Below are positions 1,402 through 18,614 of a stretch of 64,000 bases of DNA, in pieces (the stretch's first letter is position 1; every line of letters begins with the position of its first letter). Source of the stretch: Candidatus Parcubacteria bacterium (GTDB lineage: Bacteria; Patescibacteriota; Saccharimonadia; UBA4664; JBIOIQ01). Location: the NCBI GenBank assembly GCA_963718875.1, contig OY970378.1, forward strand, positions 872,265 to 936,264, read 5' to 3'. The translations under genes were made by a program, and so were the position numbers. A model generated the notes under the pieces. That model saw nothing but the letters and a program-made list of their open reading frames with translations, had not been told where the DNA came from and did not search any database.

Positions 1402-2412
1402 CTAGAAGCGCCGAGGAGGAGGCTTTGGAGACGAAGGTGGTTTTATAGATGCCGCAGATGGCGGTGGCTTAGGCTTAGATTTGGATTTGGATTTGCGCTG
1501 GCGGATAGCCAAAGCAGTGCAGACAATTGCCAAAAACGTAAAAGCGGTGACTACGATGATAAAAAAGAGAGAAGACATGATAAGGACATAGTGCGTTCCG
1601 AGATTTTCAGTGCGGCCCAGCATATTGACCGAGCCATAGACCCTAAACAGACCAAAAGAGGGAGCGCCCTTCCACTCTTGGCTAATCTTGCGGATTGTTT
1701 GCGGCAGCACCACGTGGCTGGTTTGCAGCTTGGCTTTAACGTTTCCAAATAAATCCGCTACGTATATGGAGGCGTCAGCTTGATAATGGACATTGCCCTC
1801 ATTGCTTAGACGAAGAGTAGTTTTGAGGGGTGGCTCGGTTTGCCAAAAGTCGGTTTTAAAACTTAGTAACCGTCCTTGCTCGTCTACCGCCCCGTTAACG
1901 CGCAGGTAAAGAATGGCGCCGACTCGCTTTTTACTAGCCACCCCGCTCGTGCCTTTAGGCTCCACCTTTGTTTCGGTAAAAATAACTGCGTAGTACCCTC
2001 CTGGGCCGACCCCGCTAGGCACAGAGATTTCGTATGGCACTGCCACATGCTTGCCGGGTTCTAGATGAAGTGGGACCTGGCTAGTTTTAATCCAACTAGC
2101 AACATTTGTTTGGGCGGGCTTGAGTTGAAAACTTTGAATATAGTCTTCCCCCGATACGTTATAGGGAGTGCTATATACCTTGAAGTCATAGGCTTCGGTT
2201 CCGTCGTTAATGAGAGTTAAGCTGCCACTGGCACTTTTACCCGCATCGAGCTCGTAGCGCAGGGAGGTAGGAGACATGGTCATGCTAAGACCCTGGGCGC
2301 CGGAGGACACTCCTGGAGTGGCGCCCAAAGCGCTACCCCCTGTTAGCAAAAAGTTAGCGGCTAAAGCAGCTTGAATAAATTTTTTTGTTGTAGCTGAGAA
2401 TAGTTTGTTCAA
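1402..2412 (-). CDS. DUF916/DUF3324-like (CscA-like) cell-surface protein with signal peptide, C-terminal TM helix and Lys/Pro-rich tail. The ORF runs to 2508 but the likely start is a TTG near 2412.
   Basis: Paralogous to 3083..3976, 6630..7553 and 14772..15932. Shared motifs ...EPGG[YHR][YF][AG]..F and ..GNVH.., then a C-terminal TM segment and basic tail (KSKSKSKPKPPP). Confidence 0.5.
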   Translation of the reverse strand: MNKLFSATTKKFIQAALAANFLLTGGSALGATPGVSSGAQGLSMTMSPTSLRYELDAGKSASGSLTLINDGTEAYDFKVYSTPYNVSGEDYIQSFQLKPAQTNVASWIKTSQVPLHLEPGKHVAVPYEISVPSGVGPGGYYAVIFTETKVEPKGTSGVASKKRVGAILYLRVNGAVDEQGRLLSFKTDFWQTEPPLKTTLRLSNEGNVHYQADASIYVADLFGNVKAKLQTSHVVLPQTIRKISQEWKGAPSFGLFRVYGSVNMLGRTENLGTHYVLIMSSLFFIIVVTAFTFLAIVCTALAIRQRKSKSKSKPKPPPSAASIKPPSSPKPPPRRF

Positions 2413-2426
2413 AGGCAAGACCAAAT

Positions 2427-3053
2427 TTAATTGGTTAGGGCGGTGTAGGTGACAATGTCGGTATAAGTTCCCTGCAAGACCGTGGCATTTGCCGCCACGC
2501 TGTACCAAACAGTAGTAACGTCGTTTGTACTGTTGGTAGAAGTTGTTTTGAGAGTGTTGGGTGATCCTGATGCCGGTACTCCTGCAAATGTGTCGGCAAC
2601 AAAGGCAGCGCTAGACTGCGAGCTGGTTGGGCCAGCTCCAAACCCGCCAGCTCCGTCCACTCTATACCCCCATCTACCTGAGGTTAGAGCAATGGGTGAT
2701 GCTTGAGTTCCGGTGGTGGCTGAAATGTTGTTGGAGCCTGAAACCAGGTTAGTATTGGCGTCAGCGTCTTCGAGTGTAAGGGTGTAGCCACTAATGTCGT
2801 TGGTACTTACCGTCACAGTATCGCTAGCAATGGTCTGGGCGCCGGCTACTGTAGGAAGAACATTTACATTTACTGTACCGCTGGTAGTAAACAGGCTAAT
2901 TATGGGGCTTATGACTGAACTAATAGTGGTATTGGCGCTAAAAACAGCCCCACTTAATACTGGGCTGATCATAATAAGCCCGCTTGCGACAATAGCTAGG
3001 CGTATCGGCTTAATATCTAGGAAGTGCATTTTTACCATAAGCTTTATAGACAT
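2427..3053 (-). CDS. Small secreted WxL-like protein. C-terminus ...GTYTDIVTYTALTN.
   Basis: Signal peptide MVKMHFLDIKPIRLAIVASGLIMISPVLSGAVFSA. S/T/G/A/N-rich body. C-terminal motif shared with four other proteins in the cluster. Confidence 0.5.
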   Translation of the reverse strand: MSIKLMVKMHFLDIKPIRLAIVASGLIMISPVLSGAVFSANTTISSVISPIISLFTTSGTVNVNVLPTVAGAQTIASDTVTVSTNDISGYTLTLEDADANTNLVSGSNNISATTGTQASPIALTSGRWGYRVDGAGGFGAGPTSSQSSAAFVADTFAGVPASGSPNTLKTTSTNSTNDVTTVWYSVAANATVLQGTYTDIVTYTALTN

Positions 3054-3082
3054 AATATACGCTGACTCCCAGAGAGTCAAAT

Positions 3083-3976
3083 CTAGCGCTTAAATCTAGG
3101 ACGGAGTCGACGGAATAAGACAGCAACTATGATAACTACTAGCATAAGTAGGCCCACTACTCTCCAATAGCCAGTTATTGCAAAAACTAGCGAAACATGA
3201 CTTTTGCCGGTATCTTTGTCAGTAACTAAAAGCGGAATAAGACCAACATAACTACCTGCCTTGGAAAAGCTGAATTCACGCTTGTTACCGGGAAAAACTA
3301 GTGGGCCGTTCAAGTAAGTGCGCCTACCCCACCAGGCTGCTCGGACAGATACAGTTGGGTTATAGGCAATTGCCCTAGGAGCCTCCCCCACGTTTGCATA
3401 TTGGATTGTTCCCTTTATGCCATTGCCAAACTGAAAAAAAGCCGACTTCAGGCTAGAAATTGTGCCACTTTTTTTACCTGCCCCGCCGTTATCAAGGATA
3501 AGTAACGTTCCGGCTTTGGCGCTCTGCATGATGATATTGCCACTAACTGATGTGGGCTTTGGGACGGTGGCAAAAAAAATCGCACCATAAACTCCACCTT
3601 TAGGCAGCTTGTTGGGATCGATTGTAAAAGCAACTCTTACGGCTTCACGTGGACCTAAGTCGAATTCTGAGGCCGACACTGTAATACCTCTACTTATTGC
3701 AGCATCCTGATAAAATTGCAGGTCCCCGGCTAAGTTTATTTGTCGAAAAGCGCTGACTTCACTTTTTAGTGAAATAGTAGAGTCGGATGGGTTAGAAACA
3801 TCAACAAACCCCAACTTTGAGGTAGACCCGGTTAAGCTATCTTGATATTTGAGAGGCGAGACTGAAATAGTGGGGATACTAGCGAACAGCGGTTGTGGCC
3901 GTATCAGCCCACAGAGGATCAAACTAAAAAACGCCGGGATTACTAAACCAAGCCGCAGGATAAGCAGGCGCTTCAT
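3083..3976 (-). CDS. DUF916/DUF3324-like (CscA-like) membrane-anchored surface protein
   Basis: Signal peptide, ...KGGVYGAIFFATVP... motif, C-terminal TM (VVGLLMLVVIIVAVLF) and basic tail RRLRPRFKR. A 4-nt ATGA overlap with the upstream gene indicates an operon. Confidence 0.5.
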   Translation of the reverse strand: MKRLLILRLGLVIPAFFSLILCGLIRPQPLFASIPTISVSPLKYQDSLTGSTSKLGFVDVSNPSDSTISLKSEVSAFRQINLAGDLQFYQDAAISRGITVSASEFDLGPREAVRVAFTIDPNKLPKGGVYGAIFFATVPKPTSVSGNIIMQSAKAGTLLILDNGGAGKKSGTISSLKSAFFQFGNGIKGTIQYANVGEAPRAIAYNPTVSVRAAWWGRRTYLNGPLVFPGNKREFSFSKAGSYVGLIPLLVTDKDTGKSHVSLVFAITGYWRVVGLLMLVVIIVAVLFRRLRPRFKR

Positions 3977-5334
3977 GGTTTGAGCGTGGCAGTGTAAACC
4001 ACGGAATTCGTATAAGTACCAGACTTTTGAGATGTGGCAGTGTCGGCTCGAAACCGAACTGAGCTTTTTTCTGGTACCCCACCATTAAGTCCAGTGCGGG
4101 AGTGAAATATGGTGGGAGTGGTTGGAATAAAGGCAAAGTTAAAATTGGGCGTACTCCCCCACTTGACTTCTACTTGAGTCCCACTTATAAGGCTAAATCC
4201 TAGGCCCTTGGTTGTTCCCTCATTCCAGGCTGCCGGCGTTGCGATGTTTGCTGTAACACCCGGAATAGTGGTGATTCCGTCAACGGTATGAAGCAAGTCG
4301 TGGTCCTCTTGAATATAGAGCGAATAGCCACCGGCGTCAGTGCGCACCACAGCGTCGGCATCATAAATTTGGGAGATTCCTGGTGTAATGTTTGGCACCG
4401 TAAAAGCACTAGAAGAACCGGCGGCAGCAGAAGAAAAATCATTTTCTATCTCGCGAGGACTTAATGCCCGGCTATATAATTTAACCTCATCAATAGTGCC
4501 TTTAAAAAAGTTGGCTAGGTCATCTCGAGCGCCTAGCTTTAAAGTGTTGGTGTTGGTGGTGGTGGTGCCTATTGACCCCGTGCCAACCGGCGAGCCATCG
4601 ATGTAGAGTGTGGCGCTACCACCAGATTTGGTTACTGCTATGTGCGCAAACGTCCCCGTCGGAACTGCAGAACTACTAGTGATAGTTCGTAAAGCCGTGT
4701 CAAATCCTAAAAACTGTAATTTACCTGTGGTCTGCTCAATGCGCAGCTCGTAAGTATTGTTGGCTGAGCCATTGCCGGTGGTTTTAGCGGCAATGGTGGC
4801 ATTGTTGGCATAGTCGGTAGGTTTAACCCAAGCCTCGATGGTGAGCGATCCGGTCAAGTTTAAATTGGCATTACTGGCAATATTGGTATATTGATTTGAC
4901 CCATTCAAACCCAGTCCTTGGCCCAACTTACCGCTAACCCAAGTGGGCGTCCCGCTGGAATAACCATGGTTTTCGTTGGTGCTAACGTCATAGGCCACCG
5001 TGCCAACTCCCGTATCTAAGGGGTAATACGAGACGGTCCCACTAGGCAACACCGCCAAAGTTATCGACTGAGAAAGCTGAGCCACGTAACCTTGCGTCAG
5101 TTTGTAACTTTGACTCGATCCGCTTCCTACAACCCCTTCTCCACCGGAGTCATAAAGTTTATACGAGGTTGAGGAACCGGCTCCGCCAAAGGTGCTTCCA
5201 ACATTAGGATCTAACCGATAATTTGGACTGGTTAATGAGGTGGCATGGCCTGTGATTGGCAATGCCAAGATAAGCATAACAAACCCGGCTATGTAACGTC
5301 GCACCTCTGTACTCGAATTAAGCATTACCAACAT
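3973..5334 (-). CDS. Secreted LamG/concanavalin A-like lectin domain protein with a WxL-like C-terminus (...GTYTNSVVYTATLKP). Start taken at internal ATG 5334; the ORF as listed runs to 5613.
   Basis: LamG_3-like motifs (LTIEAWVKP, TFAHIAVTKSGGSATLYIDGSPVG, FKGTIDEVKLYSRALSPREI). Signal peptide MLVMLNSSTEVRRYIAGFVMLILALPITGHA. The ORF portion upstream of 5334 overlaps the IS element. Confidence 0.6.
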   Translation of the reverse strand: MLVMLNSSTEVRRYIAGFVMLILALPITGHATSLTSPNYRLDPNVGSTFGGAGSSTSYKLYDSGGEGVVGSGSSQSYKLTQGYVAQLSQSITLAVLPSGTVSYYPLDTGVGTVAYDVSTNENHGYSSGTPTWVSGKLGQGLGLNGSNQYTNIASNANLNLTGSLTIEAWVKPTDYANNATIAAKTTGNGSANNTYELRIEQTTGKLQFLGFDTALRTITSSSAVPTGTFAHIAVTKSGGSATLYIDGSPVGTGSIGTTTTNTNTLKLGARDDLANFFKGTIDEVKLYSRALSPREIENDFSSAAAGSSSAFTVPNITPGISQIYDADAVVRTDAGGYSLYIQEDHDLLHTVDGITTIPGVTANIATPAAWNEGTTKGLGFSLISGTQVEVKWGSTPNFNFAFIPTTPTIFHSRTGLNGGVPEKSSVRFRADTATSQKSGTYTNSVVYTATLKP

Positions 5335-5375
5335 TATGCCAAACTTGTTTGGTTTTGGCCAGCTAGGAAAGGGCG

Positions 5376-6254
5376 GGTTCTGTCCACTAAAACGGAACAG
5401 ACATACTTTTAAGTAATATAAATGGGCTACTGAACAACTCTGGGTGGTTCTTTCTAGCCTGGAACTCTCTGAGTAATCCCGGTAAGAACTGATGCATGAA
5501 GCGGTCGCGGGTACGTCTGGTAAACCGATCCAGGCAGCTCCAGATCCCTTCAATGCGGTTGGTTGGTCCAAAGTGGCCAATGGAATGGTTGCAGATCTCC
5601 AGACCATAGCCAACTTCCATTAGGCCAAGGTGAGAGGCGTGAGCATCAGCAAAGATCAGGCTACCGAGAGTGGCATACTGATCGAGAAAACCTTCTATGC
5701 TATCCTGCTCACAATCTAGTATCTCAGCTAGTCTTACGAGGTTGGTTTCCCGGTCCACGATACCCATAACAATGTGTTGGTTACCATATTTCTGCCGACC
5801 TAGATAGCTCTGGTCTATCTCCAGTAGCCCGACTAACTGGCTCTTGTCGACTGGTAGTCTAGATCGCAAGCGTTCTAACCAGCGTTGGATCGTCCAGTAG
5901 GACAGCCCCGTTGAGGTGATAATGTCGCCAGGTGACTGCTTACCGCTCCAGCAAGTCACCAGTTCCAGAATCCTCCTCCAGCCGAGCTTAGACGACCCAA
6001 AGCCGACTTGTTTCTTTAAGCTCCATTTACGACGACAGGTGCCGCACCAAAGATACTGAGTAGTTATGTGGATGTTTGAGTGAGACATCCAAGGGCAAAT
6101 AGGGCCCTCGGGATAAAGATGTACTAGCACTTGGTTAAAACATTCTTGGTCTGTTACCGGTAGATCTGCTAATGTGGTCATTGGAACAAGTCTCCTTTTC
6201 TAACTGGTTAGTCCTAGTTAGATTGTAGCTTGTTCCGCTTTAGTGTAATGAACC
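5376..6254. mobile_element. IS1595-family insertion sequence (879 bp) with ~25-bp imperfect terminal inverted repeats and a 9-bp direct repeat (GAAAGGGCG) at both flanks
   Basis: Left end GGTTCTGTCCACTAAAACGGAACAG. Right end, reverse-complemented, is GGTTCATTACACTAAAGCGGAACAAG. Flanking GAAAGGGCG at 5367-5375 and 6255-6263. Single transposase ORF inside. Confidence 0.75.
5387..6181 (-). CDS. IS1595-family (ISXO2-like) DDE transposase with N-terminal zinc-ribbon
   Basis: 264 aa. N-terminal CPWMSHSNIHITTQYLWCGTCRRKW zinc ribbon. Length and architecture typical of IS1595. Sits inside the inverted-repeat-bounded element. Confidence 0.75.
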   Translation of the reverse strand: MTTLADLPVTDQECFNQVLVHLYPEGPICPWMSHSNIHITTQYLWCGTCRRKWSLKKQVGFGSSKLGWRRILELVTCWSGKQSPGDIITSTGLSYWTIQRWLERLRSRLPVDKSQLVGLLEIDQSYLGRQKYGNQHIVMGIVDRETNLVRLAEILDCEQDSIEGFLDQYATLGSLIFADAHASHLGLMEVGYGLEICNHSIGHFGPTNRIEGIWSCLDRFTRRTRDRFMHQFLPGLLREFQARKNHPELFSSPFILLKSMSVPF

Positions 6255-6352
6255 GAAAGGGCGTCTTCTAATTACCATTAGAATTCTTTCAGCCATCCGT
6301 CTTCCTTAAATCGCAACTTTTTTAGATGGCTCTATTCATTCTTTTGTACTAT

Positions 6353-6543
6353 GTACCGCCAAACTGTCAGTAATAAATGTTTTTGATTATATGACTTCTT
6401 CTAGGAAGTTTTGTTAGACTTTTGGAACATTTTGACTGATGTTTTTTTTCTGATTAGCACTCAAAGCCATGAGAGGTTGAAAGAGAAGTTTATTATCGCC
6501 TTAGCCATTTAGCACAATAAAACTAGTGACAGTTTGGCGGTAC
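6353..6543. repeat. Pair of inverted 19-bp repeats (ATGTACCGCCAAACTGTCA / TGACAGTTTGGCGGTACAT) bracketing an AT-rich ~155 bp spacer; MITE-like or operator pair
   Basis: 6353-6369 is the exact reverse complement of 6527-6543. A third near-identical copy is at 62406-62428. Confidence 0.5.
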
Positions 6544-6629
6544 ATACAAAAAAAGCTACACCTTTATCCTTGCGTTCCCATTGAAGAGCGAGTGATTATG
6601 AGCCACAACTTAAAGGCTTTTTTATTGAT

Positions 6630-7553
6630 CTAGTCTTTGCCGCTGAGTGCTCTGAAAGCCTTTTTGAATCTTTTTCGGTTACGCCAGAGCAAGAAGTACA
6701 ATACGACGAGTAGAGAGGCGGCTATGATGAGCAGTTTGTATGGAACAACTGTAAAACTGGTTTCGGCTGTTAACTGTTGTTTGTCGCCGTTGTTTAATAC
6801 CAATGTGGCCTTATAAAAACCAAACATCCACTTTTTATTAAGGGTTGTTTCGGTGCGACGGATAGCGCCAGGAATAACATTCTTGGGCTCCAGCTTGACC
6901 GTGGCAACCTTCATACCCAATAGGTTCTTAACCGTGATTGTGCCTGTCGGCTTGGCGTGAACGTTGCCAGTATCTTTTATACGAGTTTCAAACTTGATGG
7001 GCCCAATCTCGTAAAAGGCCTTTTCGGTTTTAAAACTGGCAATTTCAACCCTCTCATTGGCATTACCGGCAATACGTAAAAATATTAGTGCGCCAAGCTG
7101 CTGCTTAACCGCCGCCCCGGATTGCCCACTCGGTAGCGTGGTCTCCAGAGTGTGGAATACTAACGATCCATAGCGTCCGCCAGGCTCGGCGTTCAAAGGA
7201 ATGTCGATTTTGAAACTAACCGATTGGGTCCCCTTAGCAGGAACGTTTATTACATCGGGTGTAGCGCTAAACCATGGCGCTAAAGAATAAAGGTCGTTAT
7301 TAGTAGTGAGGTCCACTTGCCCCTCTTCGCCTTTAGCAACAAAATTATTGCGGTCAGCTGCCAGGACTAGTGGCGAGCCAGTAAGATTGATGATTTTGAA
7401 TGAGCCGGTTACCGATTGGCCGGGATTAGCCGATATTTCTAAAGATGGCGGGGATATAGCAAACCCAAGTGAATCCGCATGCGCTTGCCCAGCTATTCCA
7501 ACAGAGCTTGCGAGCAAACTTATGACAACTAAAAAGCGAACCAAGTATTTCAT
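6630..7553 (-). CDS. DUF916/DUF3324-like (CscA-like) membrane-anchored surface protein
   Basis: Signal peptide MKYLVRFLVVISLLASSVGIAGQAHA. Motifs NAEPGGRYGSLVF and DTGNVHAKPTGTITVKNLLGMKV. C-terminal TM plus RNRKRFKK tail. Confidence 0.55.
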   Translation of the reverse strand: MKYLVRFLVVISLLASSVGIAGQAHADSLGFAISPPSLEISANPGQSVTGSFKIINLTGSPLVLAADRNNFVAKGEEGQVDLTTNNDLYSLAPWFSATPDVINVPAKGTQSVSFKIDIPLNAEPGGRYGSLVFHTLETTLPSGQSGAAVKQQLGALIFLRIAGNANERVEIASFKTEKAFYEIGPIKFETRIKDTGNVHAKPTGTITVKNLLGMKVATVKLEPKNVIPGAIRRTETTLNKKWMFGFYKATLVLNNGDKQQLTAETSFTVVPYKLLIIAASLLVVLYFLLWRNRKRFKKAFRALSGKD

Positions 7554-7875
7554 ATATGCTTACAATCATAACAGCAAATAACAAATCCTAATATTTAAAT
7601 CCTGTAAAGGGACGATGTCCCCACGGGATTTTTCGTCCGAAACTCGAATGAATACTCAAAATGCAAATGTTTAAAGATTGGGATTTGAATAACTTTTTCG
7701 GATTTGATCTTTAATTATCAAAACCTGACATTTCAACAAATAACACACTTTGATGCAGTGCTAGGAGATGCTGAAGCCCGTAAGGGAGTCCCCTGATCAA
7801 GTCCGGGGCAAGCTCCGTATTGAACGCGGACTGGAGGTATCGACAACGTAATGCACTAAGTGTGTTATTTGTTTT

Positions 7876-8970
7876 TTAATAAATGGGGGTGCAGGTGTAG
7901 ATGACGGTGGTGGTGTAGGTGCCTGGTTTTGTAACACCAGAGATGCCAACTTGATGGCCGACGCGGGTGGTTTGTGAAGCTACCGGGGCGGCATCGTAGG
8001 CGACCTCTGCATTGCTGGTAGTGTTAGCCGCCCAGACATCAGGAGTGCTGGTAAAGCGGTTGACGGCTAAGGCTTGCAAGGTGGCGTCATTGGTAGTGTA
8101 GCCGTACGACTCTGTTCCGGCGGCTGAAAATGAGGTTGGTGCGGCGTTGGTTCCAGTGTGGTCAGCAATTTGATTAGCGCCCGAGGTGGGTTTAGCGGTA
8201 TAGCGTATGAATACCGTATACCCGCTGCCGGCGTTGGTGGCGACGCTTAAATCTTGGCAAACAATTGAATTAGAGGCCGTTGTTACGGTACCAAAGGGAA
8301 TGGTGGTAGACGTACTGGCCTGCGTCGATGTTGCCCCATTACAACTAGCTCCGGATGCGACCGTATTAACTGTAAAGCTTAATGTAGGGTCGACGGTTAA
8401 TGACAGGGTCGATCCTGGGGTGAAGATAAACGCTAGAGTTGTATTGTCTACGGGGCTAGTGGTGCAATCGACGTTGTCATAAGTACTAAACTGCATGAAG
8501 TAGCTAACGTTAGGGATGGAGCTGTTTACAACTCCGGCCAATACAAAAGTGGCGTTAGTGGTAGTAGACGGGGTGATGCCAGTGTTGTGGGTATAAGTTA
8601 TGTTATTGGCGGTTGGGGTTAGCGTCCAGCCAGTGCCAGAGCTATTAACTAAAGTTGATGATGCGGCGGTGACGGTGGCAGAGGCGGCGGTGAAGCCGTT
8701 GCCAATATTAACCGCTGAGCTTGGGCTGGTACTAAAAACAGCTTTAATACATTTAATACTGGCGCTGGTAACGTTGCTAGCTGTAGTCGTATAAGTAGAG
8801 GTGGCACTTGGACGAGGGTCGCTTAGAGCGACCGATGCAGGGTTTAGTTGAGCAGCATTAACAATTCCAAAGTTGAGCGACATCGTGCCCAACAAGGTAA
8901 CCCAAGCCATCCATAGTCTCATTAAACGGCCTTGTGAAGCAATGATTTTGATTTGACTATGTTTTTTCAA
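7876..8970 (-). CDS. Secreted WxL-like surface protein, C-terminus ...GTYTTTVIYTCTPIY
   Basis: Signal peptide, then conserved N-terminal segment ...ALSDPRPSATSTYTTTAS.... Thr/Ser/Ala/Asn-rich body. C-terminal motif shared with the 15934 and 17364 paralogs. Confidence 0.55.
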   Translation of the reverse strand: MKKHSQIKIIASQGRLMRLWMAWVTLLGTMSLNFGIVNAAQLNPASVALSDPRPSATSTYTTTASNVTSASIKCIKAVFSTSPSSAVNIGNGFTAASATVTAASSTLVNSSGTGWTLTPTANNITYTHNTGITPSTTTNATFVLAGVVNSSIPNVSYFMQFSTYDNVDCTTSPVDNTTLAFIFTPGSTLSLTVDPTLSFTVNTVASGASCNGATSTQASTSTTIPFGTVTTASNSIVCQDLSVATNAGSGYTVFIRYTAKPTSGANQIADHTGTNAAPTSFSAAGTESYGYTTNDATLQALAVNRFTSTPDVWAANTTSNAEVAYDAAPVASQTTRVGHQVGISGVTKPGTYTTTVIYTCTPIY

Positions 8971-9068: not shown

Positions 9069-10769
9069 CTACTTTTCATTAGACTCATCATCGGGAGTTT
9101 GAGATTCCTGATTTGGGGTTTTGCGCTTAGACCTGCCACGCCAATCGGTAATCATCAAGAATCCGCGCTGAGCCTTGGCAGTCCCGCTCCACACCCACCC
9201 CAGGGGCTTCCAAGCTGCAGCTTTACGCAGCCAGGCAATAAGGTGCGGCTCATGAGCTGTATGCGCAATCTGATGAGCTCCTTTTAGCCTTAGCCATTTT
9301 TCCCTACGCCAAGCTAAAAATAACACTACATTAATAATAGTTGCGACAATAAGCAGAACCACAACTAGCGGCAGCAGCAAGCGCTGGTACCAAGGAGGTG
9401 GAACTGGTTTTTTGAGTGCAGTGGCAGTAATAACTAATTTGAGGTCTGGCGATGGAGAACTTTCGGCGCCAACACTATTGACCCGACTAAAACGAATGGT
9501 GTAATTGCCTGGGAACAATTGCGGTTTATAAGTATATTCCCAAGTGATGCCATTGGCAAAGCCGCCGGCTCCTTTGTCTTTGGCCTTGGAAGCTTTTTTG
9601 TCTTTGGCTAAAAATTGTTCGAGCAGCTTACCATTTAAAAAGACTGATATGGTATCCCCTGCCTCCGACTGCCCAATATAGTTCATGGGTTGTAAAATAA
9701 CTAACGACGAAGGCCAAGTCAGTATCTTGGGAGGGGCAATGCCTGTAATTTCGAAGTCGGTTTTGGCTTCTTTTGTGTTACCGGCTTTGTCGTAGGCAGT
9801 TACTACAATGGTGTGTTTACCTGGGCGCTGTTTGGGGATGGCGTCGCCAGGATTTAAGGGAAAGGCTTCTCCATCATCAATTTTGGCTGTGTAGCGGTCG
9901 ATGCCAGAGATGCCGTCATTAGCTGTAAAACTTGCCTTGGGAGTAGGATTTGAAGCATTGCTGCCGTTGTCCATTTTGACGCTAAAATCATCTGGTGGGC
10001 TAGAATCTATATGAATATCAAAATGGACAGTGCTGCCACCGGTTTGATTAGAGCCTTTTAAATGGAAATACCAAGTCCCTTCATCTAGGTCGTATGAAGT
10101 ATTAATAGTGCCGTTATTGGGACTATTTGGAACGGTGCCTGGGTTACGGTCAACCGCAAATGAGTAATTACCAACGGCCGTTGTAGCAAACCAATTTAGC
10201 TCCACGCGGCGGCTGGTATACCATTGGTTTTCGTTGGGATGAGTTCTGGAGTTTACTGTCAGTAAGGGCACCGGGGGCTTAGGAGTGTTAACGGTAAAAG
10301 TGGCGCCACTGGAGCAGCACAATACATTTGTACCCATGCCATCATTGGCCAGTATTTGACTACCGGCCACATTGACGGTATACGTGCCTGGCGTGGTGGC
10401 ATTAAATATTACGGTCACAACGCGTCCGCCGCTGCCGTTGTAGCCAGGGTTAGACAGCCCACCCGAAAAATAAACTGACGAGCCTGAACCAACAGGCCCG
10501 GCACCTCCCCCACTGGCCCAAGTGGTAAATATTGAGCCCGAGGTAGAGGCAAATGAATATTGTAAGCCGGGGGTCCAGGTAACGGTGGCTTCACCAGCAT
10601 TAATAGCTTGGCCGCCTGAGTTAATCATTATACCCACGCGAATCACGTCGCCAACATTGTAGGCGCCAGAGGATGGTGAAGCGTAAAAGCTGGCGTTGGC
10701 GGCGGCACGGGCTGTGGGGGCCGGGATAAGGCTAGCCGATAAGGAAGAAACGAAAACGGCTAGTAGCAT
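9069..10769 (-). CDS. Large surface protein: signal peptide, N-terminal cohesin-like domain, Ig-like repeats, C-terminal TM helix and cytoplasmic tail. ORF runs to 10913; likely start at MLLAVFVSS.
   Basis: Cohesin-like segment GDVIRVGIMINSGGQAINAGEATVTWTPGLQYSF...GRVVTVIFNATTPGTYTV. TM LLLPLVVVLLIVATIINVVLFLAW near the C-terminus. Confidence 0.55.
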   Translation of the reverse strand: MLLAVFVSSLSASLIPAPTARAAANASFYASPSSGAYNVGDVIRVGIMINSGGQAINAGEATVTWTPGLQYSFASTSGSIFTTWASGGGAGPVGSGSSVYFSGGLSNPGYNGSGGRVVTVIFNATTPGTYTVNVAGSQILANDGMGTNVLCCSSGATFTVNTPKPPVPLLTVNSRTHPNENQWYTSRRVELNWFATTAVGNYSFAVDRNPGTVPNSPNNGTINTSYDLDEGTWYFHLKGSNQTGGSTVHFDIHIDSSPPDDFSVKMDNGSNASNPTPKASFTANDGISGIDRYTAKIDDGEAFPLNPGDAIPKQRPGKHTIVVTAYDKAGNTKEAKTDFEITGIAPPKILTWPSSLVILQPMNYIGQSEAGDTISVFLNGKLLEQFLAKDKKASKAKDKGAGGFANGITWEYTYKPQLFPGNYTIRFSRVNSVGAESSPSPDLKLVITATALKKPVPPPWYQRLLLPLVVVLLIVATIINVVLFLAWRREKWLRLKGAHQIAHTAHEPHLIAWLRKAAAWKPLGWVWSGTAKAQRGFLMITDWRGRSKRKTPNQESQTPDDESNEK

Positions 10770-10909
10770 AAATGAGCGACCCCACGACCTTCGCGCTTGA
10801 ATCCAGTTCAAGGAAGAACCGAGAACCACAGAGAGGCGTACCCGGAAGTACGCTGACCGAGGATCGCAGGCTCTGACGACGAAATGGGCCAAGCGAGTAG
10901 GTCGTAATG

Positions 10910-11440
10910 TCATTTGATGTCTACCTCGATGGGCTTGAGCTGCAAGGGAATTGAGGTACCCAAACCATCATTAAGTTTTACGGCGGTATTACCCGTAAAA
11001 GTTAGTTTGGTTTTGAGGGGTTTTTTAGCCACCAGGGTTACACTACCAACTTTGCCTTGGCCGCGAAAACCAGGGTTAAAAATGCCACCCACAAAACTAA
11101 TGTCGCCGCTGGTATTAGAAAATTTTGGTTCATTGGGAACCCAAATAGTAAAGAATGTCTGATCCTTGCTGATGGAATCTACCTGGACCACCTTGGGGTC
11201 AAACTTTAAATATATCTCAGCCGCATTAATGGTTTGGCCAGCGGTATCAATAACAATTGGTAGTGTTAATCGGTGGTTACTACCCGAAACGGGCTGAGGT
11301 GCAGTAATAGTGGCCTCTCTCGAGGTTGGGGTTTTATTAAATAGCAAATAGCCGCCTATGACTGATATGCCAAACAGGGCAATAAAATGCCAGCGGCGGT
11401 GAGTTGGACGATTTGGTTGAGGTTTTCCCACAGTATCCAT
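10910..11440 (-). CDS. Membrane-anchored cohesin-domain protein
   Basis: N-terminal TM (WHFIALFGISVIGGYLLF). Cohesin-like LTLPIVIDTAGQTINAAEIYLKFDPKVVQVDSI...GDISFVGGIFNPGFRGQGKVGSVTLVAKK. 4-nt overlap with the downstream gene. Confidence 0.6.
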   Translation of the reverse strand: MDTVGKPQPNRPTHRRWHFIALFGISVIGGYLLFNKTPTSREATITAPQPVSGSNHRLTLPIVIDTAGQTINAAEIYLKFDPKVVQVDSISKDQTFFTIWVPNEPKFSNTSGDISFVGGIFNPGFRGQGKVGSVTLVAKKPLKTKLTFTGNTAVKLNDGLGTSIPLQLKPIEVDIK

Positions 11441-11504
11441 AAAACGCTTATGTCTATAATACCGTAAACGGAAGAATACTCAACCTTAGGAAGCGTTTAT
11501 TCTA

Positions 11505-11627: not shown

Positions 11628-11701
11628 TTTTGGAGGTTCTTGGAGACAAAAGTGAGGGCAGTTCAGACACTTTTCTCGACAGAAATGATCCTTTTGTGAC
11701 A

Positions 11702-11749: not shown

Positions 11750-11857
11750 TGAGTAGAATAACAAAGGCCTTTACTGTTTCTTGACAAATTAAACTTCTTA
11801 TGCTACACTACTTGTTGTATCTGGAAATTCCAGGTAGCACATGCAAAAGGAGCAGTC

Positions 11858-12097: not shown

Positions 12098-12350
12098 ACT
12101 GCAGTTCCTGCGAAATTGATCTGAAATCCAAGGATACACCTTGTGCGGTACCGATTTACGAAGTAACATCTTTTTGCATCACCCGAGGGACTAGTCTCTC
12201 AAAAGCGGTTGCTGTTGCACCGCCTTTTCTCAAGCTTTCAACCGACTGGTTGACGTCTTAAGAGAAGTTCCAGCACTTTTTATTGACGTATCCGATATTT
12301 TTATGCCATAATACTTTTGACCAAATTGCTCTCTCAAGGATGTCGACAAC

Positions 12351-12800
12351 ATGACCACAAGCACCTGGGTTGGATTCGACCGCGCCCTCGCCGTAGCACT
12401 GGAGCAGTACATCAAGCCGCAACTCTCCGTGAACTTCTTCGGCCCACTCTCAGTTGCCCAGCTGCTGGAGGCCGGTTACGGAGTGTACATCTCCGGCGAC
12501 CTCAAGGACACCAAGGTTCTCGTAGTCTACCAAGACGACGAGGGCAACACATGCGTTCGCCTCGGCAACCTCCTCGCAACCATCGCGGCAAACGTGATGT
12601 CCGCCCATGACACCAAGACCCTCGCTCAACCAGATGGCGATTGGGTCTGCGTTGGCGCCACCACGTTGACCCTCTGCTCTGCCTACGGCACCATCCCTGG
12701 CAGGGTCATCTACGTCCTCGATCAGGTCACGGATTTGGGAATTTCCGGCTTCGTCGCCGGCTACCGCGCCGGCCACTGGGATGGCGGGATCGTTCCCTAG
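12351..12800 (+). CDS. Hypothetical protein encoded in a high-GC island
   Basis: 149-aa ORF with GC-rich codons, in contrast to the flanking sequence. Many overlapping alternative-frame ORFs, typical of high GC. No recognisable domain. Confidence 0.45.
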   Translation: MTTSTWVGFDRALAVALEQYIKPQLSVNFFGPLSVAQLLEAGYGVYISGDLKDTKVLVVYQDDEGNTCVRLGNLLATIAANVMSAHDTKTLAQPDGDWVCVGATTLTLCSAYGTIPGRVIYVLDQVTDLGISGFVAGYRAGHWDGGIVP

Positions 12801-12830
12801 CTAGGCAATTTGGGCATGGGAGCGCTACTC

Positions 12831-12858
12831 GCGCTCCCGCCCACCCCAAGCGCTCAAA
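12831..12858. repeat. Second (truncated) copy of the 27-bp repeat GCGCTCCCGCCCACCCCAAGCGCTCAAA
   Basis: 26/27 identical to 11702-11728. The hairpin is only partly retained. Confidence 0.5.
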
Positions 12859-12895
12859 TATTTTTGAGAATTTAGGCTAGGATTAATAAGAGCTA

Positions 12896-13243
12896 TTAAT
12901 ACCGCAACAAACCTCTTCGCTTTAGTTCACTGAATACAGCAACATAGTATGCTGGGTGTTTTTGCCAATCCGAAGGGGTTGAGCTATTTACTATTGCAAT
13001 AATATCTTCGTCAGTAGCGGGCGTTTCGCCTGCACCGAGTAACTTTTCACGAGAACCAACATTGTGAAGTACCCCAGGTTGCAACTCAATCATTCCAGCC
13101 AAGACATCCATCATTTCGCCAAGCTTTTTTTCGTCTATGCCAGGCTCAATATAAGCATTAAACTCGGGCTCATCGGCTTTCCCTCCAGAGCCAGCGTCTG
13201 GTTCTATTCTTTTACCGCCCGGAAATTCAATAAGTTCTCCCAT
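12896..13243 (-). CDS. Hypothetical acidic protein
   Basis: 115-aa ORF, directly downstream of 13256..13747. Confidence 0.4.
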   Translation of the reverse strand: MGELIEFPGGKRIEPDAGSGGKADEPEFNAYIEPGIDEKKLGEMMDVLAGMIELQPGVLHNVGSREKLLGAGETPATDEDIIAIVNSSTPSDWQKHPAYYVAVFSELKRRGLLRY

Positions 13244-13255
13244 GACTAAAGCCTA

Positions 13256-13747
13256 TTACAGATATCTTCCGCCACCTTCGACGCTTGTATCTCTTTTTTT
13301 GTCACCAATAGCCACTTGTGCTTTAGCTCGTCTGTCTCCAAGCTTTTTAGTTTCTTCTGCAATAAAACGTTCATAGTTGGGGTTATTCATGGCTGCTAGC
13401 TCAGCCAAGCACTCTTCCACCAGCTGTAAATGATATTCAATGTCGCCAGTAGCCCTTCCCGCCTCAACATCCTCGATATAACGGTCAATGGTTCCACTGT
13501 TTACATATGCGGCAGATACAACTGATGTATCCCTAGGTGACTCAGCAACAGTCGCCCCGCTTATAGATGCCATTTCAGGATATTCGGCTAACAGAGCTTC
13601 ATCTAAATCAAATTTGGCAATATTCGGATCGTATAAAGCTTCATTAGGGTCAATTTCAACTTCTTCATCAATCGCGCCCAACCCCTCTACTGGACTGACT
13701 GCTTCCGCTCCGTCTGGATTAACTTCTCCTTCTTCTGGTCTTGGCAT
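13256..13747 (-). CDS. Hypothetical acidic protein
   Basis: 163-aa ORF, Asp/Glu-rich, no recognised domain. Confidence 0.45.
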   Translation of the reverse strand: MPRPEEGEVNPDGAEAVSPVEGLGAIDEEVEIDPNEALYDPNIAKFDLDEALLAEYPEMASISGATVAESPRDTSVVSAAYVNSGTIDRYIEDVEAGRATGDIEYHLQLVEECLAELAAMNNPNYERFIAEETKKLGDRRAKAQVAIGDKKRDTSVEGGGRYL

Positions 13748-13944
13748 ATAGATTATCCTCTATCTTTCTCGCATCCTCAAAAAAGATGCTTTGCGTCGCT
13801 ATTACATTATTTTGAAATCTTTTGCATCATACCAGTTAATCGAAACTGATATCAAGACTGGCCTTCGACTACGCTCAGGCAATAAAGCGATGGATCGAAA
13901 ACCGCTTCGAAAAGATCACAGTAGGCGAGTTTGCTATGACCAGA

Positions 13945-14772
13945 CTACCCCGTCCAGTAAAACAACATGATCGACAGGTCGGTAAGGTTGGTTTTGGTGT
14001 CATCATTAATATCAGCCGGTTTATTGATGTTGGATTGCAAGTAAAAGAACATGAGGATAGAAAAGTCGGTTAGGTTGACGCGGTTGTCGTTATTTAGGTC
14101 AGCCGAAAGTACCACCGTAAAACTGGCCGGAGGCGTTTGCGGGCTTTGGTTAGCACTCGGGTTTTGCACCACACTGCTGGCAGTGTAAGTACCAAGGTGC
14201 AAGGTTCCGGAAGGTGAGGTTTGCCAATTACCGATGGAATCGGACGGGCTGGTAGTTGCAAACGAATCGCTGTATTTTGCGCCGCTCCAAAAGGTTGTGA
14301 CCGTGGAGTCTTGGCGGGTTGTCCCAACTATTGATTGAATTTGGGGCCGTTTGATGGGGTTTTTAATAATCTGGAATGTGGTGGGCAGTAAATAGCCACT
14401 CAGGGTAGTGGTATAGGCAGGCAAAATCGTGACGTCATTACTAACAGTAGCCGAAACTCGGCCGGATACATCCGTGGCATGAATGCTGTAGGTGGCTAAC
14501 CCTTGGGATTGGTTGGTAAAAGTATTATCAAAACTGCTGTCAGCTCCTGCAGTTTGAGTGCCAATAACCACGCCGTTACGCTCAAACGTTACCAACGCCC
14601 CTGGCGAGGCCTCCCCTACAAACTGAACTCCCCCGTTTTGCACTGGCAGCTCAGCCCCAATAGTTGATTCCTCGGTAAGTGCTGTTATGGCCATAATGGG
14701 GGCGCTTAAAGAGCTGAAAAAAAATAAAGCCGCTAAGGCTGTTGACGGCTTAACGTTAAAACGGGCACGCAT
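13945..14772 (-). CDS. Secreted protein with a C-terminal type-I dockerin-like duplicated repeat
   Basis: Signal peptide. C-terminus ADLNNDNRVNLTDFSILMFFYL...ADINDDTKTNLTDLSIMLFYWTG is a tandem D-x-N-x-D-x-x-x-N-x-x-D Ca-binding repeat typical of dockerin. Start overlaps the stop of the upstream gene. Confidence 0.65.
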   Translation of the reverse strand: MRARFNVKPSTALAALFFFSSLSAPIMAITALTEESTIGAELPVQNGGVQFVGEASPGALVTFERNGVVIGTQTAGADSSFDNTFTNQSQGLATYSIHATDVSGRVSATVSNDVTILPAYTTTLSGYLLPTTFQIIKNPIKRPQIQSIVGTTRQDSTVTTFWSGAKYSDSFATTSPSDSIGNWQTSPSGTLHLGTYTASSVVQNPSANQSPQTPPASFTVVLSADLNNDNRVNLTDFSILMFFYLQSNINKPADINDDTKTNLTDLSIMLFYWTG

Positions 14773-15932
14773 TAGCGACCCTTAATTAAAACCCTGGCAG
14801 CCGACGCAAGACGCTTGCGCAAGACAAACAGCAACACAAGAATGACGATGGCCATAATTAGCACCCAGAGCGGGAAGGCCCAAAAAACAGTTTCAGCGGT
14901 CAAAATTTTGTTTTGCGATCCATAAACGGCTGCCACTTGGGCGCGGTAATATCCACCCCACAGCGACTTCGTAGGCCAAATCACACTAATACGACGTTCG
15001 CCCCCAGGAAATACATTGCGGGGGTCAAGCGCTACTTGATCAACCTTGCGTCCAAAAATATCATAAATCGTAACTGTTCCGGCTGGCTTAAAGTGAACGT
15101 TGCCGGAGTTTTTAAATACCAGATCGAAAGCAATGGGACCTTGATTAAAGTAGCTTTTGGGCTTTTCGTTATTTAGGTCCTCGCCCGAGGCCACGTAGAT
15201 TTTGGTCTTGCCGTCGGAGCCCGTAACTGTTTGCCAGTCCCCAATAAAATTTTTGGTGCGAAAGCTTTTAATACTGCCTGCTTCAGTAACAGCCCCACTA
15301 ACCTTCATCAGAATAAGCGAGCCAACTCGCTGAATTACGCTGGCGCCGGTAGAATTGGAACTTGCAGCCACGACGGGGTTGAATAATACAGTGGCAAAAT
15401 GACCGCCGGGCTCAGCATTTTTGGGAACACGGATAGTAAATGGAACCAGAGCTGACGATTTGGCAGCTAAAGGGATCTGAGTGGTTGTAAAACTAAACCA
15501 ACTGGCAAAGGCGTTAGTCTTTGCGTCATCCGCTACCTTTACCGACCCTTCAGTTCCTGCCACCGTAAAATCTTGAGCGCTGGCAGTTAGTGTTACGGCC
15601 GCATCAGACTCATTGGTTACCCGAATGGTGTTACTTAAGGTGTCTCCTGGGTTAGCGCTTAGTTCATAAGTGGGTGGAGATACAGTAATACCTTGGGTTG
15701 TGGCCGCCGATACCGGTTGGCCGATTGCTATTAAAGCGATAGAGGCCAGAATTAGGCTGCCAAAAGATTTTTTTATAGATAAGAAACTCACTAGGACTTT
15801 CTCACTTGAGTGCAGTTTGGATGCAAATATCGAGTACCGTAAACGAGGCGTAGTTGACCTACGTCGAGTGCGGAACGGAGATTTTGCGCCGAAATGTGCC
15901 AAGTGTGATAGTCCTATAGTACTTATGTTCAT
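14772..15932 (-). CDS. DUF916/DUF3324-like (CscA-like) membrane-anchored surface protein
   Basis: Motifs KNAEPGGHFATVLF and NSGNVHFKPAGTVTIYDIFGRKV. C-terminal TM plus RKRLASAARVLIKGR tail. Confidence 0.55.
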   Translation of the reverse strand: MNISTIGLSHLAHFGAKSPFRTRRRSTTPRLRYSIFASKLHSSEKVLVSFLSIKKSFGSLILASIALIAIGQPVSAATTQGITVSPPTYELSANPGDTLSNTIRVTNESDAAVTLTASAQDFTVAGTEGSVKVADDAKTNAFASWFSFTTTQIPLAAKSSALVPFTIRVPKNAEPGGHFATVLFNPVVAASSNSTGASVIQRVGSLILMKVSGAVTEAGSIKSFRTKNFIGDWQTVTGSDGKTKIYVASGEDLNNEKPKSYFNQGPIAFDLVFKNSGNVHFKPAGTVTIYDIFGRKVDQVALDPRNVFPGGERRISVIWPTKSLWGGYYRAQVAAVYGSQNKILTAETVFWAFPLWVLIMAIVILVLLFVLRKRLASAARVLIKGR

Positions 15933-15933
15933 T

Positions 15934-17036
15934 CTAAAAGGTTGGAGTGCAAGTGTAAACCACTTTCCCGGTATATGTACCCGCCGGCGAGAATACGGTA
16001 AAGCGCAGTCGATATCCTATATTAACCGCATCGCTGGCCACGCTGTTGTTGGCATGGGCTACTTCGGCATCGGTATTGGTGACCCCGGCAAATAAATTAT
16101 CGGCCGTCGTAAAGCGGTTAGCCACCCCAGATAAACTGGCGTCGCTAGTAGTATAGCCAAATAATTCAGCTGGTCCGCCAGGCGTAGCCGTTGGACTCGT
16201 GTTTGTTCCCGTCCAGTCAGGTATAGAAGCTGCTCCATTTTTTAATACATCGCCGGCGGTGGTAAACTTTTAATAGTTACTTGATAGCCGCTGCCAGCAT
16301 TAGTGCTAGTCGTAAGTGTTTGCGCACAATCATAGTCAGTGTTGGGTGATAATGGCTGAATAGCTGAGCCAAATGTGACGGAGGTAGCAGTATCATTACA
16401 AAGGCTAGCTGTGCTTAAGGCACCTTTATAAATAGTGGAAGCTGGAGTCCCGGTAACATTAAAAGTTAAGGTAGGATCGATAGTAAGGCTGACTGTAACG
16501 GCCACTACAATCACGTAGGCAATGGTGGCGGAGTCGACTTCGGTGGTGTAAGTATCATCAGAATAGGTAGTAAGTCGTACAAAATAAGTCCCGGGGTTGG
16601 TGGGATTTGTAACATTACTAAACACAATTTGTTGGGATCCCGTGGGAGCCGCCACATTCGAGCTATTTTTGATCTGAAGTGAGCTCGTAACAGAGTCATT
16701 GGTCCAGCCTGAAGAGTCGCCATAGCCCACCGGTTGGCTGGCAAGGGTGGCGGCGGATGCTGAAAAGCCAGTTGGAGCTACACAACTACCAGAGCTGGTA
16801 GTGCACATTTGAGCTCGGAAAGCCTTGAGTACCGTACTACTGCCGACGGTAAAACTATAACTGTAGGAAACGTTACTCTCGGTCGGCTGGGTGTCCGATA
16901 ACGATACGCTGGCGCTACTAATAGCACCAGCGGCGGCACTGGCCGAAACCCACAGAAGCTTACTGGCAACTAATACCAATAAAACAACAATAGTAGCGTG
17001 CAATCGCACGGGGTACTTGGATATTTGCTTAGTCAT
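15934..17036 (-). pseudogene. WxL-like surface protein paralog of 17364..18308, split by a frameshift at an A4/T4 tract (~16264-16273) into ORFs 16242..17036 and 15934..16125
   Basis: The N-terminal ORF ends ...GYQVTIKSLPPPAMY*. The other frame continues ...FTTAGDVLKNGAASIPDWTGTNTSPTATPGGPAELFGYTTSDASLSGVANRF... to ...GTYTGKVVYTCTPTF and is colinear with the paralog. Confidence 0.55.
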
Positions 17037-17310
17037 AGATGTTTATTTTACGGTTTTTGTTTTAATTACCGCTACTGCTAAGTTAACAAAACTATGGCTA
17101 CCCGTCAAGAATGCTTATGCTTTTAAAATCCTTTAAGGGAAAATTTTCAATGCGGCTTTGCATCATCATTCTTGTATAAGTCTAAGTTAGACTGCTTTTA
17201 AGCACTTTGAACACGTCTATGTTAGACTTATAGTAATAGTAGACGTATGGAGAAGAGCCTACTTATTCATACTTAAAAAGATCCCTCATGCTTTTGACTG
17301 TTAAAAATTG

Positions 17311-17344
17311 GTATCCAAAAAGCTGCCACTGGAAGCGACAGCTT
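17311..17344 (-). terminator. Candidate intrinsic terminator for the 17364 gene: AAAGCTG-13-nt loop-CAGCTTT, followed on the minus strand by TTGGATACCAATTTTTAAC
   Basis: 7-bp stem immediately downstream of the stop codon, followed by a T-rich tract. Confidence 0.45.
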
Positions 17345-17363
17345 TGATGGGTATTTGTTTACT

Positions 17364-18308
17364 TTAGAATACGGGGGTACAGGTATAGACTAGAGTGCCT
17401 CGGTATACACCTGCTTCTGTTACGCCGGTGTATTTGAGTCGGTAGCCCACATTTACTTGATCATTGGCAATGGCCGTAGCATTGTAAGCTACTTGATCCG
17501 GAGTGGTGGTAAGACCGGCAAACAGATCATCCGAAGCGGTAAATCGAGTGGCTACGCCGGATAGGGTGGCGTCGTTAGTGGTGTAGCCAAACGTTTCGGC
17601 GGGAGTGACGGCAGTAGAGGCAGGCGTGGCGTTTGTTCCGGTGGAGTTAGTGATGCTCTTAGTAGCATCACTAATGAGCTTTAGGAAGTCACCACTGGTT
17701 TGCTTGCCTTGGACGGTTACTTGGTAGCCACTATTAGCGTTGGTACTGGTAGCCAGCTGTTGAGCGCAGTCATAGGTAGTGTCAGCTGAAAGTGGCGAGG
17801 CTGGACTACCAAAGGTAACGGCGGTGGCAGTATCGGTACATTTGGCGTCAACTGCCAGGGAACCTTTAAAGGTGGTGGCTGGAGCAAGTCCAGAGACAGT
17901 AAAGCTTAGAGTCGAGTCGATCGTGGCACTTACCAGTACGCTAGGAACCGTTACAAAACCAATCACAGTGGCGTCAACCAGAGTGGCGCACGTGTCATCA
18001 CTGTAGGTGTTTATTTCAATATAAAATGTGCCTCCGCTTGATGAAGTGGGATTCGTAAGTAACTGGATGGGGGTGGTGATTTGGGTACCAGATGTCACTG
18101 ACGCACCAGTGACATTGGTTTCTTTTACCGTTCCAGCCGTACTGTTGTCGATAGTCCAGTTGGCAGCCGTTAAGTTAGTGAAAACACCGTTGGTTGCGGC
18201 AGAGTTAGAAAAACCGGTCGGCGTTGTACCTTGACCGGCATTGGGCGAAGTACTCCAACGATACGTAAAACACTCAAGCGTGGCGGTAGTACTAGCCATC
18301 CAGCTCAA
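17364..18308 (-). CDS. Secreted WxL-like surface protein (...GVYRGTLVYTCTPVF). The true N-terminus probably extends to a GTG near 18503 through a second frameshift.
   Basis: The in-frame upstream sequence encodes ...AAGGLTNASATLSDPRPDAPAASVSY, matching the paralog N-termini. A signal peptide (RRNSTVNGRFRRLFNAVIVASIGLFTFNGLFSAV) lies in another frame, separated at a T/A-rich stretch around 18385-18400. Confidence 0.5.
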   Translation of the reverse strand: MSWMASTTATLECFTYRWSTSPNAGQGTTPTGFSNSAATNGVFTNLTAANWTIDNSTAGTVKETNVTGASVTSGTQITTPIQLLTNPTSSSGGTFYIEINTYSDDTCATLVDATVIGFVTVPSVLVSATIDSTLSFTVSGLAPATTFKGSLAVDAKCTDTATAVTFGSPASPLSADTTYDCAQQLATSTNANSGYQVTVQGKQTSGDFLKLISDATKSITNSTGTNATPASTAVTPAETFGYTTNDATLSGVATRFTASDDLFAGLTTTPDQVAYNATAIANDQVNVGYRLKYTGVTEAGVYRGTLVYTCTPVF

Positions 18309-18614
18309 AGTATAACTTACGCTGGCTGCAGGAGCGTCGGGGCGGGGGTCGCTTAATGTTGCACTAGCGTTAGTTAAACCGCCGGCGGCAAAACGGCCGA
18401 AAACAGACCATTGAACGTAAATAATCCAATACTAGCTACTATAACTGCGTTAAATAAGCGCCGAAAGCGCCCATTAACGGTAGAATTTCTCCTCACAAGA
18501 ACTCCTCACCTTTTATTTGTTGCATTAAGCATAACCATAATGAAAGGCTTGGTCAATAGTTTTTGCGAATCAAGAATCATGAATTATGAATAAAGGGAGA
18601 AGCGCAGCTTTGAT

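Follow-up and report, generated by a model that had tools for sequence, protein, structure and literature searches.

We analysed a stretch of 64,000 nucleotides from a Candidatus Parcubacteria bacterium of the Saccharimonadia (contig OY970378.1, positions 872,265 to 936,264), which is called the window below. Its minus strand, followed from 18.5 kb down to 1.4 kb, carries a gene cluster for surface proteins. Our results suggest, with a probability of about 0.8, that this locus encodes a Pam-type surface pilus that needs no usher, and not a wall-binding WxL complex of the Firmicutes style. Homologies, domain architectures and a conserved gene order were found in support. Pam pili are the donor-strand-exchange pili of the Candidate Phyla Radiation (CPR), and cryo-electron microscopy (cryo-EM) of the fibres of Ca. 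Mycosynbacter amalyticus identified PamA and PamB (Troman et al. 2026, bioRxiv 10.64898/2026.03.03.709456). The same preprint reports that the C-terminal domain of a Pam pilin takes the linker of its neighbour and that this inter-domain linker is conserved. It describes PamC and PamD as PapD-like chaperones with a membrane helix acting without an usher, PamT as a single-domain tip pilin, and PamR as a membrane-anchored, RbmA-like tether; the fibres presumably reach the host first.

The genes of the locus follow each other on the minus strand in the order W4, W3, A4, Doc, a 2.5 kb insert, CohS, CohL, W2, A3, an IS1595 transposase, LamG-W, A2, W1 and A1. The features are listed below from the left edge of the window, with matches to local hidden Markov models (HMMs), Pfam or NCBIfam and with transmembrane (TM) helices in residue numbers.

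1..789, minus strand: beginning of a large secreted protein, its N-terminal portion in an open frame that starts at 789 like a signal peptide and continues beyond the left window edge
1402..2412, minus strand: A1, membrane-anchored PapD/WxLIP-like chaperone, PamC/D-like; A-family HMM E 2e-86, TM 270-305
2427..3053, minus strand: W1, small pilin with the C-terminal pilin domain only, PamT-like by architecture; W-domain HMM E 4e-35
3083..3976, minus strand: A2, divergent anchored chaperone-like protein; A-family HMM E 7e-70, TM 261-295
3973..5334, minus strand: LamG-W, secreted, a LamG lectin-fold domain combined with a pilin domain at the C-terminus; Laminin_G_3 (Pfam) E 1.9e-32, W-domain HMM E 2e-35
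5387..6181, minus strand: IS1595-family transposase between A3 and LamG-W, an interruption and no component; PF12762 E 8e-8
6630..7553, minus strand: A3, anchored chaperone with a signal peptide, two beta-sandwich domains and a TM helix
7876..8970, minus strand: W2, two-domain major-pilin-like protein of PamB/PamE size (about 35-37 kDa), likely start 8910; NF058581 E 1.3e-8
9069..10913, minus strand: CohL, cohesin-like N-terminal domain, immunoglobulin (Ig)-like domains, TM helix 506-537 and cytoplasmic tail, likely start 10769
10910..11440, minus strand: CohS, short protein with a cohesin domain and a hydrophobic anchor at the N-terminus; PF00963 27.1 bits
11480..13945, strand unassigned: lineage-specific insert of 2.5 kb that separates the dockerin gene from the cohesin genes
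13945..14772, minus strand: Doc, secreted protein with two Ig-like domains (Big_6, Big_13) and a C-terminal dockerin; Dockerin_1 above cut-off
14772..15902, minus strand: A4, anchored chaperone of the second module; PF06030 E 2.4e-4
15934..17036, minus strand: W3, two-domain pilin, frame broken at about 16270; W-domain HMM matches on both pieces
17364..18496, minus strand: W4, two-domain pilin; the frame of its signal-peptide exon (GTG at 18496) is lost at about 18395; NF058581 E 6e-7

The open reading frame (ORF) list and domain scans indicated that the minus strand is densely packed at 1402-18503 with genes for secreted or anchored proteins, and the best homologues of the surface proteins were all from Saccharimonadia or Patescibacteria. 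A sequence-only reading of this DNA had described fifteen consecutive minus-strand genes of that kind. The dense run was recovered, but it holds the IS1595 transposase, insert ORFs that are not secreted and two frameshifted pilin genes. Moreover, the cluster does not keep to the boundary given in that reading, as it continues past the left window edge with the secreted protein from 789. The LamG domain, the two cohesin proteins, the dockerin-terminated protein and the C-terminal TM helix with basic tail, present in all four A paralogues, were correctly recognised. The proposal of a modular surface or attachment apparatus of an epibiont-type CPR bacterium was likewise supported.

The pilin identity of the W proteins was indicated by NF058581, the NCBIfam model CPR_Pam_pilin_C (148 positions, curated cut-off 55 bits), which was built from Troman et al. 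2026. It matched W2 over model positions 2-148 of 148, as well as W4 and, with an E value of 0.058, W1, all end to end. The W1 orthologue in a related locus (L007) matched at 2e-6, and 50 of 67 diverse members of the W family were matched, the best at 2.3e-11. In the AlphaFold2 model of W2, two beta domains are connected through a linker of low confidence at residues 181-200 (predicted local distance difference test about 62). Across 33 orthologues, columns 181-202 hardly vary, and few parts of the family are as conserved as the linker. W1, in turn, has 217 amino acids and consists of the pilin domain only. We found 628 homologues of W2, whose orthologues are 50-68% identical and tandemly duplicated, while a profile of the pilin domain retrieved 2371 cluster representatives. 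Among the 150 best representatives (118-3282 amino acids) nearly all have the domain at the extreme C-terminus, and the N-terminal cargo of the large ones includes LamG repeats, M23 peptidase and RCC1 propellers. Several related loci also encode proteins of 767-2120 amino acids with the pilin domain at the end. Sequence searches of the PDB with W2, the W2 profile and an actinobacterial WxL profile found nothing, and the same was true of tblastn searches of plasmids with W1 and the W2 C-terminal domain.

The partners of the pilins, A1 to A4, are paralogous, and each begins with a signal sequence, followed by two beta-sandwich domains, a C-terminal TM helix and a basic tail; A1 has an isoelectric point of 9.8 and its tail is Pro-rich. 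By profile comparison, the A proteins were shown to be homologues of the WxLIP/DUF916 family. A profile of 32 A proteins aligned with the Listeria and Melissococcus WxLIPs at 92% probability (hhalign, E 5e-7, first domain only), and its top match in the whole PDB was E. faecium WxLIP1 (E 0.003). A tblastn search with A4 found actinobacterial "DUF916 domain-containing proteins" (E 2e-8, 75-88% coverage), among which a Clavibacter protein is above the Pfam cut-off for DUF916, and many A3 orthologues have precomputed PF06030 matches. In the window itself PF06030 was matched below threshold only, by A4 and, with an E value of 0.029, once more, and no window protein matched DUF3324/HBD (PF11797) in the Pfam scan. 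On an independent contig A4 is called as a gene of 376 amino acids; exact-protein look-ups of the long A4 ORF and of UppS, a flanking gene product, found neither on record. The Pam preprint does not mention a WxLIP link of the Pam-type chaperones (bioRxiv 10.64898/2026.03.03.709456). In its Supplementary Table 1 the PamC label stands on the 119 kDa QHN42421.1, and the 36.5 kDa QHN43268.1 beside pamB is unlabelled. This label is probably a slip; QHN43268.1 resembles the chaperone of the text.

The conserved gene order was examined in 49 loci from species-representative genomes, which were scanned with local HMMs. A-type chaperones and pilins occur together in 46 of these loci, and the order W, (W), A, LamG-W, A is found in 13. 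The closest relative, L020, has the full order of the window except for the insertion sequence (IS) element, the 2.5 kb insert and the W1-A1 pair. Synteny with related genomes, which the sequence-only reading had named as a check, was thus found. Most of the loci come from genomes titled Saccharimonadia, WWE3, Woesebacteria, Doudnabacteria or Patescibacteria. About ten metagenome-assembled genomes with the locus are titled Gammaproteobacteria, Pseudomonadales or Nanoarchaeia (L030, L036, L039, L047, L053-L058, L010), and these titles are probably taxonomic mislabels.

A lectin-bearing subunit appears to belong to this order. The C-terminus of a LamG-W orthologue resembles W2 (BLASTP 9e-5), and the W2-type conserved linker was not visible in a four-sequence alignment of LamG-W, which is weak evidence. 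A2 sits directly after the LamG pilin gene in 13 related loci. Because LamG-W combines a lectin domain with a pilin domain and shows no such linker in that alignment, we propose for it the role of a lectin-bearing tip adhesin like FimH or PapG.

The cohesin and dockerin proteins may explain how the fibre is held on the cell. Both CohS (cut-off 24.1 bits) and Doc (PF00404, 24.5 bits, cut-off 22.9) are above their Pfam cut-offs, and the Ca-loop repeat occurs twice in Doc. CohL (614 amino acids) carries Big_13 and OmpL47-type domains and is homologous to CohS (phmmer 4e-9), and it is through this homology that it counts as a cohesin. In 17 of the 49 loci the dockerin protein comes after a W-A pair and is followed by a cohesin protein. 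In 6 other loci a longer Doc homologue that ends in a TM helix occupies the dockerin position, and none of these 6 has a cohesin gene. The PamR model NF058578 matched two of the three longer homologues that were scanned (E 2.9e-27 and 2.1e-11) and no window protein, and residues 24-221 of Doc align with the N-terminal halves of all six (E 1e-16 to 4e-6). Since the Doc/cohesin order recurs in 17 loci and the PamR-like TM tether stands without a cohesin in 6, the cohesin-dockerin pair probably anchors the pilus. Doc and the cohesins would then be an alternative, non-covalent anchoring of a PamR-related tether, the binding being predicted from adjacency.

Assembly of the pilus may be pictured as follows. 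The pilins W2, W3 and W4 would be exported via Sec, and A1 to A4, as the equivalents of PamC and PamD, would cap the open C-terminal domain of each pilin with a strand of their own. The chaperone strand would be displaced by the linker strand of the next pilin, and the fibre would extend outward from the membrane. This filament formation by donor-strand exchange, with anchored chaperones as catalysts, is carried over from the cryo-EM study of M. amalyticus and is predicted for this locus. W1 and LamG-W would be specialised subunits, most likely distal, and LamG-W may bind glycans of the host surface in the manner of FimH or PapG. Doc would plug into the membrane-anchored cohesin proteins and so tether the fibre to the cell, a task that in other CPR genomes would fall to a PamR-like protein that carries a membrane helix itself. 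Attachment to other microbes is the way of life of CPR bacteria, and the lectin-fold subunit LamG-W could set the host specificity.

Several observations weigh against a Pam-type pilus. In the window all matches to the NCBIfam Pam models lie under the curated cut-offs, with a best NF058581 score of 35.1 bits, and because none of the three window pilins that match the model reaches 55 bits the W proteins are classed, on sequence, as distant members outside the curated Pam pilin clade. W1 gave no match to the PamT model NF058579 at E ≤ 0.1, the A proteins match no NCBIfam model, and the PamR matches of the proteins in related loci reach 95 and 43 bits against a curated 300. No one-to-one assignment to PamA-T was obtained, the comparison being made through the NCBIfam models and the published description, and the gene order is unlike that of M. 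amalyticus. Filaments of this organism have not been seen, the assembly has frameshifts in two pilin genes, and the operon is split by the IS element. Lastly, CohL is not significantly similar to the C-terminal half of the PamR-like proteins (E 0.03). For this reason Doc plus CohL as a literal gene split of a PamR-like protein was rejected, and a domain replacement is suggested instead.

The sequence-only reading had compared the locus to a Csc/WxL cell-surface complex, in which the W proteins would be non-polymerising surface proteins that WxLIP-like anchors hold on the wall or membrane, with no fibre. We consider this unlikely. The anchors are indeed related to WxLIP, and homology over the DUF916 (PGBD) domain is evident from the tblastn and WxLIP profile matches, although PF11797, the other half of that prediction, was never matched. 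As WxL rules have it, there are small and large proteins whose shared domain is always C-terminal. The motifs of W and WxL align in register (sGYxL with sGWxL, and GTYTxTVxYTxT with GxYxxTLTWxL), with Tyr replacing both signature Trp residues. Streptomyces and Clavibacter plasmids (L002 at about 3500-5840 and L001 at 5098-5724) have DUF916 genes beside WxL-like genes. One of these actinobacterial neighbours is a GH43-ricin protein whose end is a WxL-like domain (PF13731 E 1e-4), and another is a small WxL-like protein. Clusters of the WxL type thus occur in Actinobacteria too, near glycan-utilisation genes. In contrast, the partners could not be demonstrated to be WxL proteins. PF13731 gave no match at E ≤ 1 in the window proteins, the 33 W2 orthologues or the 67 diverse W relatives, that is, in 0 of about 100 family members, whereas the small WxL proteins of Listeria and Melissococcus, used as positive controls, scored 1e-41 and 1e-48. 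A bona fide large WxL protein from a WxL cluster on a Melissococcus plutonius plasmid (L008, 6715-8823) also has no PF13731 match at E ≤ 0.01. At least one large WxL protein thus escapes the Pfam model, and the lack of a match alone is weak evidence. Comparison of the W family with WxL sets by hhalign gave probabilities of 0.3-6% (P 0.006-0.016), in register and not significant. The W domain fits instead the model of the Pam pilins, which are proven filament subunits, and the conserved inter-domain linker suits donor-strand polymerisation. Of the Pfam families expected by the earlier reading, PF00963, PF00404 and Laminin_G_3 were thus found, PF06030 was found below threshold only, and PF13731 and PF11797 were not. 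At the level of sequence families, homology of the partner domains W and WxL is unproven and that of the chaperone or anchor is shown, and by the family's own definition this is no WxL cluster. A search of the PDB with the Listeria and Melissococcus WxL proteins found no solved WxL structure, and literature searches found no papers that link Saccharibacteria to WxL or Patescibacteria to DUF916.

Two further explanations seem less probable still. An S-layer or sheet-like coat of W2-type proteins, anchored in the membrane by the A proteins, would agree with the conservation of the W2 orthologues, which is unusual for surface proteins, with their tandem duplication, with the all-beta, Ig-like character of W2-type proteins and with the S-layers reported across Patescibacteria generally. 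Such a coat is very improbable, as the W proteins are homologous to proven filament subunits, their partners are chaperone-like, and S-layer families were unmatched in Pfam and NCBIfam. We hardly credit a cellulosome-like, glycan-degrading assembly through cohesin-dockerin pairs. Cohesin and dockerin are above their cut-offs and a LamG/ConA-like domain is present, but the Pfam and NCBIfam scans found no glycoside hydrolase or other enzyme domain in the locus, the single dockerin protein is made of Ig-like domains, and a TM-anchored PamR-like protein can take the place of the cohesin-dockerin pair. A Pam-type pilus remains the reading that we prefer.

The interruptions of the locus differ in kind. 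W3 and W4 are each broken by a deletion of 1 nucleotide in a homopolymer (runs read as A4 and as T4). An independent short-read contig of the same organism (Logan, ERR12037361) has an intact ORF of 219 amino acids across the W3 break, and the W3 frameshift is therefore probably an assembly error. The two homopolymer deletions may be long-read errors in the source assembly, and further genes of the window could be hit. The IS1595 transposase is missing in L020, and relatives have A3 and LamG-W adjacent; the element may split the operon or give it a new promoter. The short-read contig of the same organism stops at this transposase. The 2.5 kb insert is missing in L020, where Doc abuts CohS, and was found in the independent contig. 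It contains two acidic ORFs without signal peptides at 12896-13243 and 13256-13747 (115 and 163 amino acids), overlapping ORFs on both strands at 12351-12800, and a reversed GC skew. The insert ORFs had zero matches in the Pfam and PHROGs scans.

On the left side, region 1-789 has 73% nucleotide identity with the stretch directly after the locus in L020, and the protein starting at 789 is probably the counterpart of a giant protein of 2281-2568 amino acids that follows the locus in relatives. Giant neighbours were found after the locus in L006 and L007, and one giant carries CBM_4_9. On the other side, the region 18615-24962 directly flanks the locus and encodes UppS, a UbiA-family prenyltransferase and subunits II and I of a quinol/cytochrome oxidase; a terminal oxidase is notable in a CPR genome. 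Linkage of pam genes to ATP synthase has been reported (bioRxiv 10.64898/2026.03.03.709456), and no ATP synthase genes were found among ten large ORFs scanned. Farther away, a 90-nucleotide direct repeat (58697-58786 and 59503-59592, 97% identical, spaced by 806 bp) ends just upstream of the window's only tRNA gene, tRNA-Gln at 59657-59731.

Compared with the Pam system of M. amalyticus, whose pilins are PamA, PamB, PamE and PamT, the locus likewise belongs to a CPR organism, has no usher and would send all components through Sec. Both have two-domain pilins (about 38 kDa) in which a conserved linker precedes a C-terminal pilin domain, one small single-domain pilin and one larger pilin, and three or four PapD-like proteins with a C-terminal TM helix, and the protein sizes resemble the M. 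amalyticus set. Gene order and sizes nevertheless differ enough to show that the window is not from M. amalyticus itself. The window differs in its sequence matches below the curated cut-offs, in its gene order with an extra paralogous module W4-W3-A4, in a large subunit with a LamG domain that Pfam recognises, and in the tether position, which holds a dockerin and two cohesin proteins in place of a TM-anchored PamR. The sequence-only reading had called the combination an undescribed system. This no longer applies to the core of pilins and anchored chaperones, which was described in 2026, but cohesin, dockerin, lectin (LamG), WxL and DUF916 are unmentioned in that preprint.

The chaperone-usher pili (Pap, Fim, Csu, CFA/I) share with this locus the incomplete Ig-like pilin domain and donor-strand exchange, and LamG-W recalls the two-domain logic of their adhesins, with a lectin and a pilin domain. 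Here, in contrast, there is no outer membrane and no usher, the usher family being unmatched by any locus protein in the Pfam and NCBIfam scans. A membrane anchor holds the chaperone, an additional domain stands at the N-terminus of the pilins, and the inter-domain linker would serve as donor strand.

The WxL/WxLIP clusters of Lactobacillales, Listeria and Actinobacteria (PMC9772566, PMC10599100; PDB 9i1y, EfmWxLIP1) have a homologous anchor, in which an N-terminal Ig domain of DUF916 type is joined to another Ig domain and a TM helix. Their partners are also small and large with a shared C-terminal domain, partners are acidic and anchors basic, and the anchor is predicted to complete the beta-sandwich of the partner by a strand. 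The differences are that the window has Tyr at both signature Trp positions and lacks PF13731 and PF11797 matches, that its partners have an N-terminal domain and a donor linker and their homologues polymerise, and that it encodes no LPXTG protein and belongs to a CPR organism, not to Bacilli. Pam pili and WxL/WxLIP clusters might together form one ancient usher-less superfamily of single-membrane cells, based on strand complementation around a membrane-anchored PapD-like chaperone. The WxL domain would be a pilin-type incomplete Ig, and the tether either a PamR helix or a cohesin-dockerin plug; we hold this idea tentatively, and the odds are somewhat against it. The homology of chaperone and WxLIP leads to the hypothesis that the WxL clusters, long without an explanation, of enterococci, listeriae and lactobacilli may use strand complementation from chaperone to partner.

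Finally, as in cellulosomal and non-cellulosomal cohesin-dockerin systems, the dockerin is type-I-like with duplicated Ca-binding loops, and the cohesin is on a membrane-anchored protein. The cargo here is different, an Ig-domain protein of a pilus operon and no enzyme. A cohesin-dockerin pair as a widespread alternative to the PamR tether would, if true, be an unusual use of these modules, the anchoring of a pilus.

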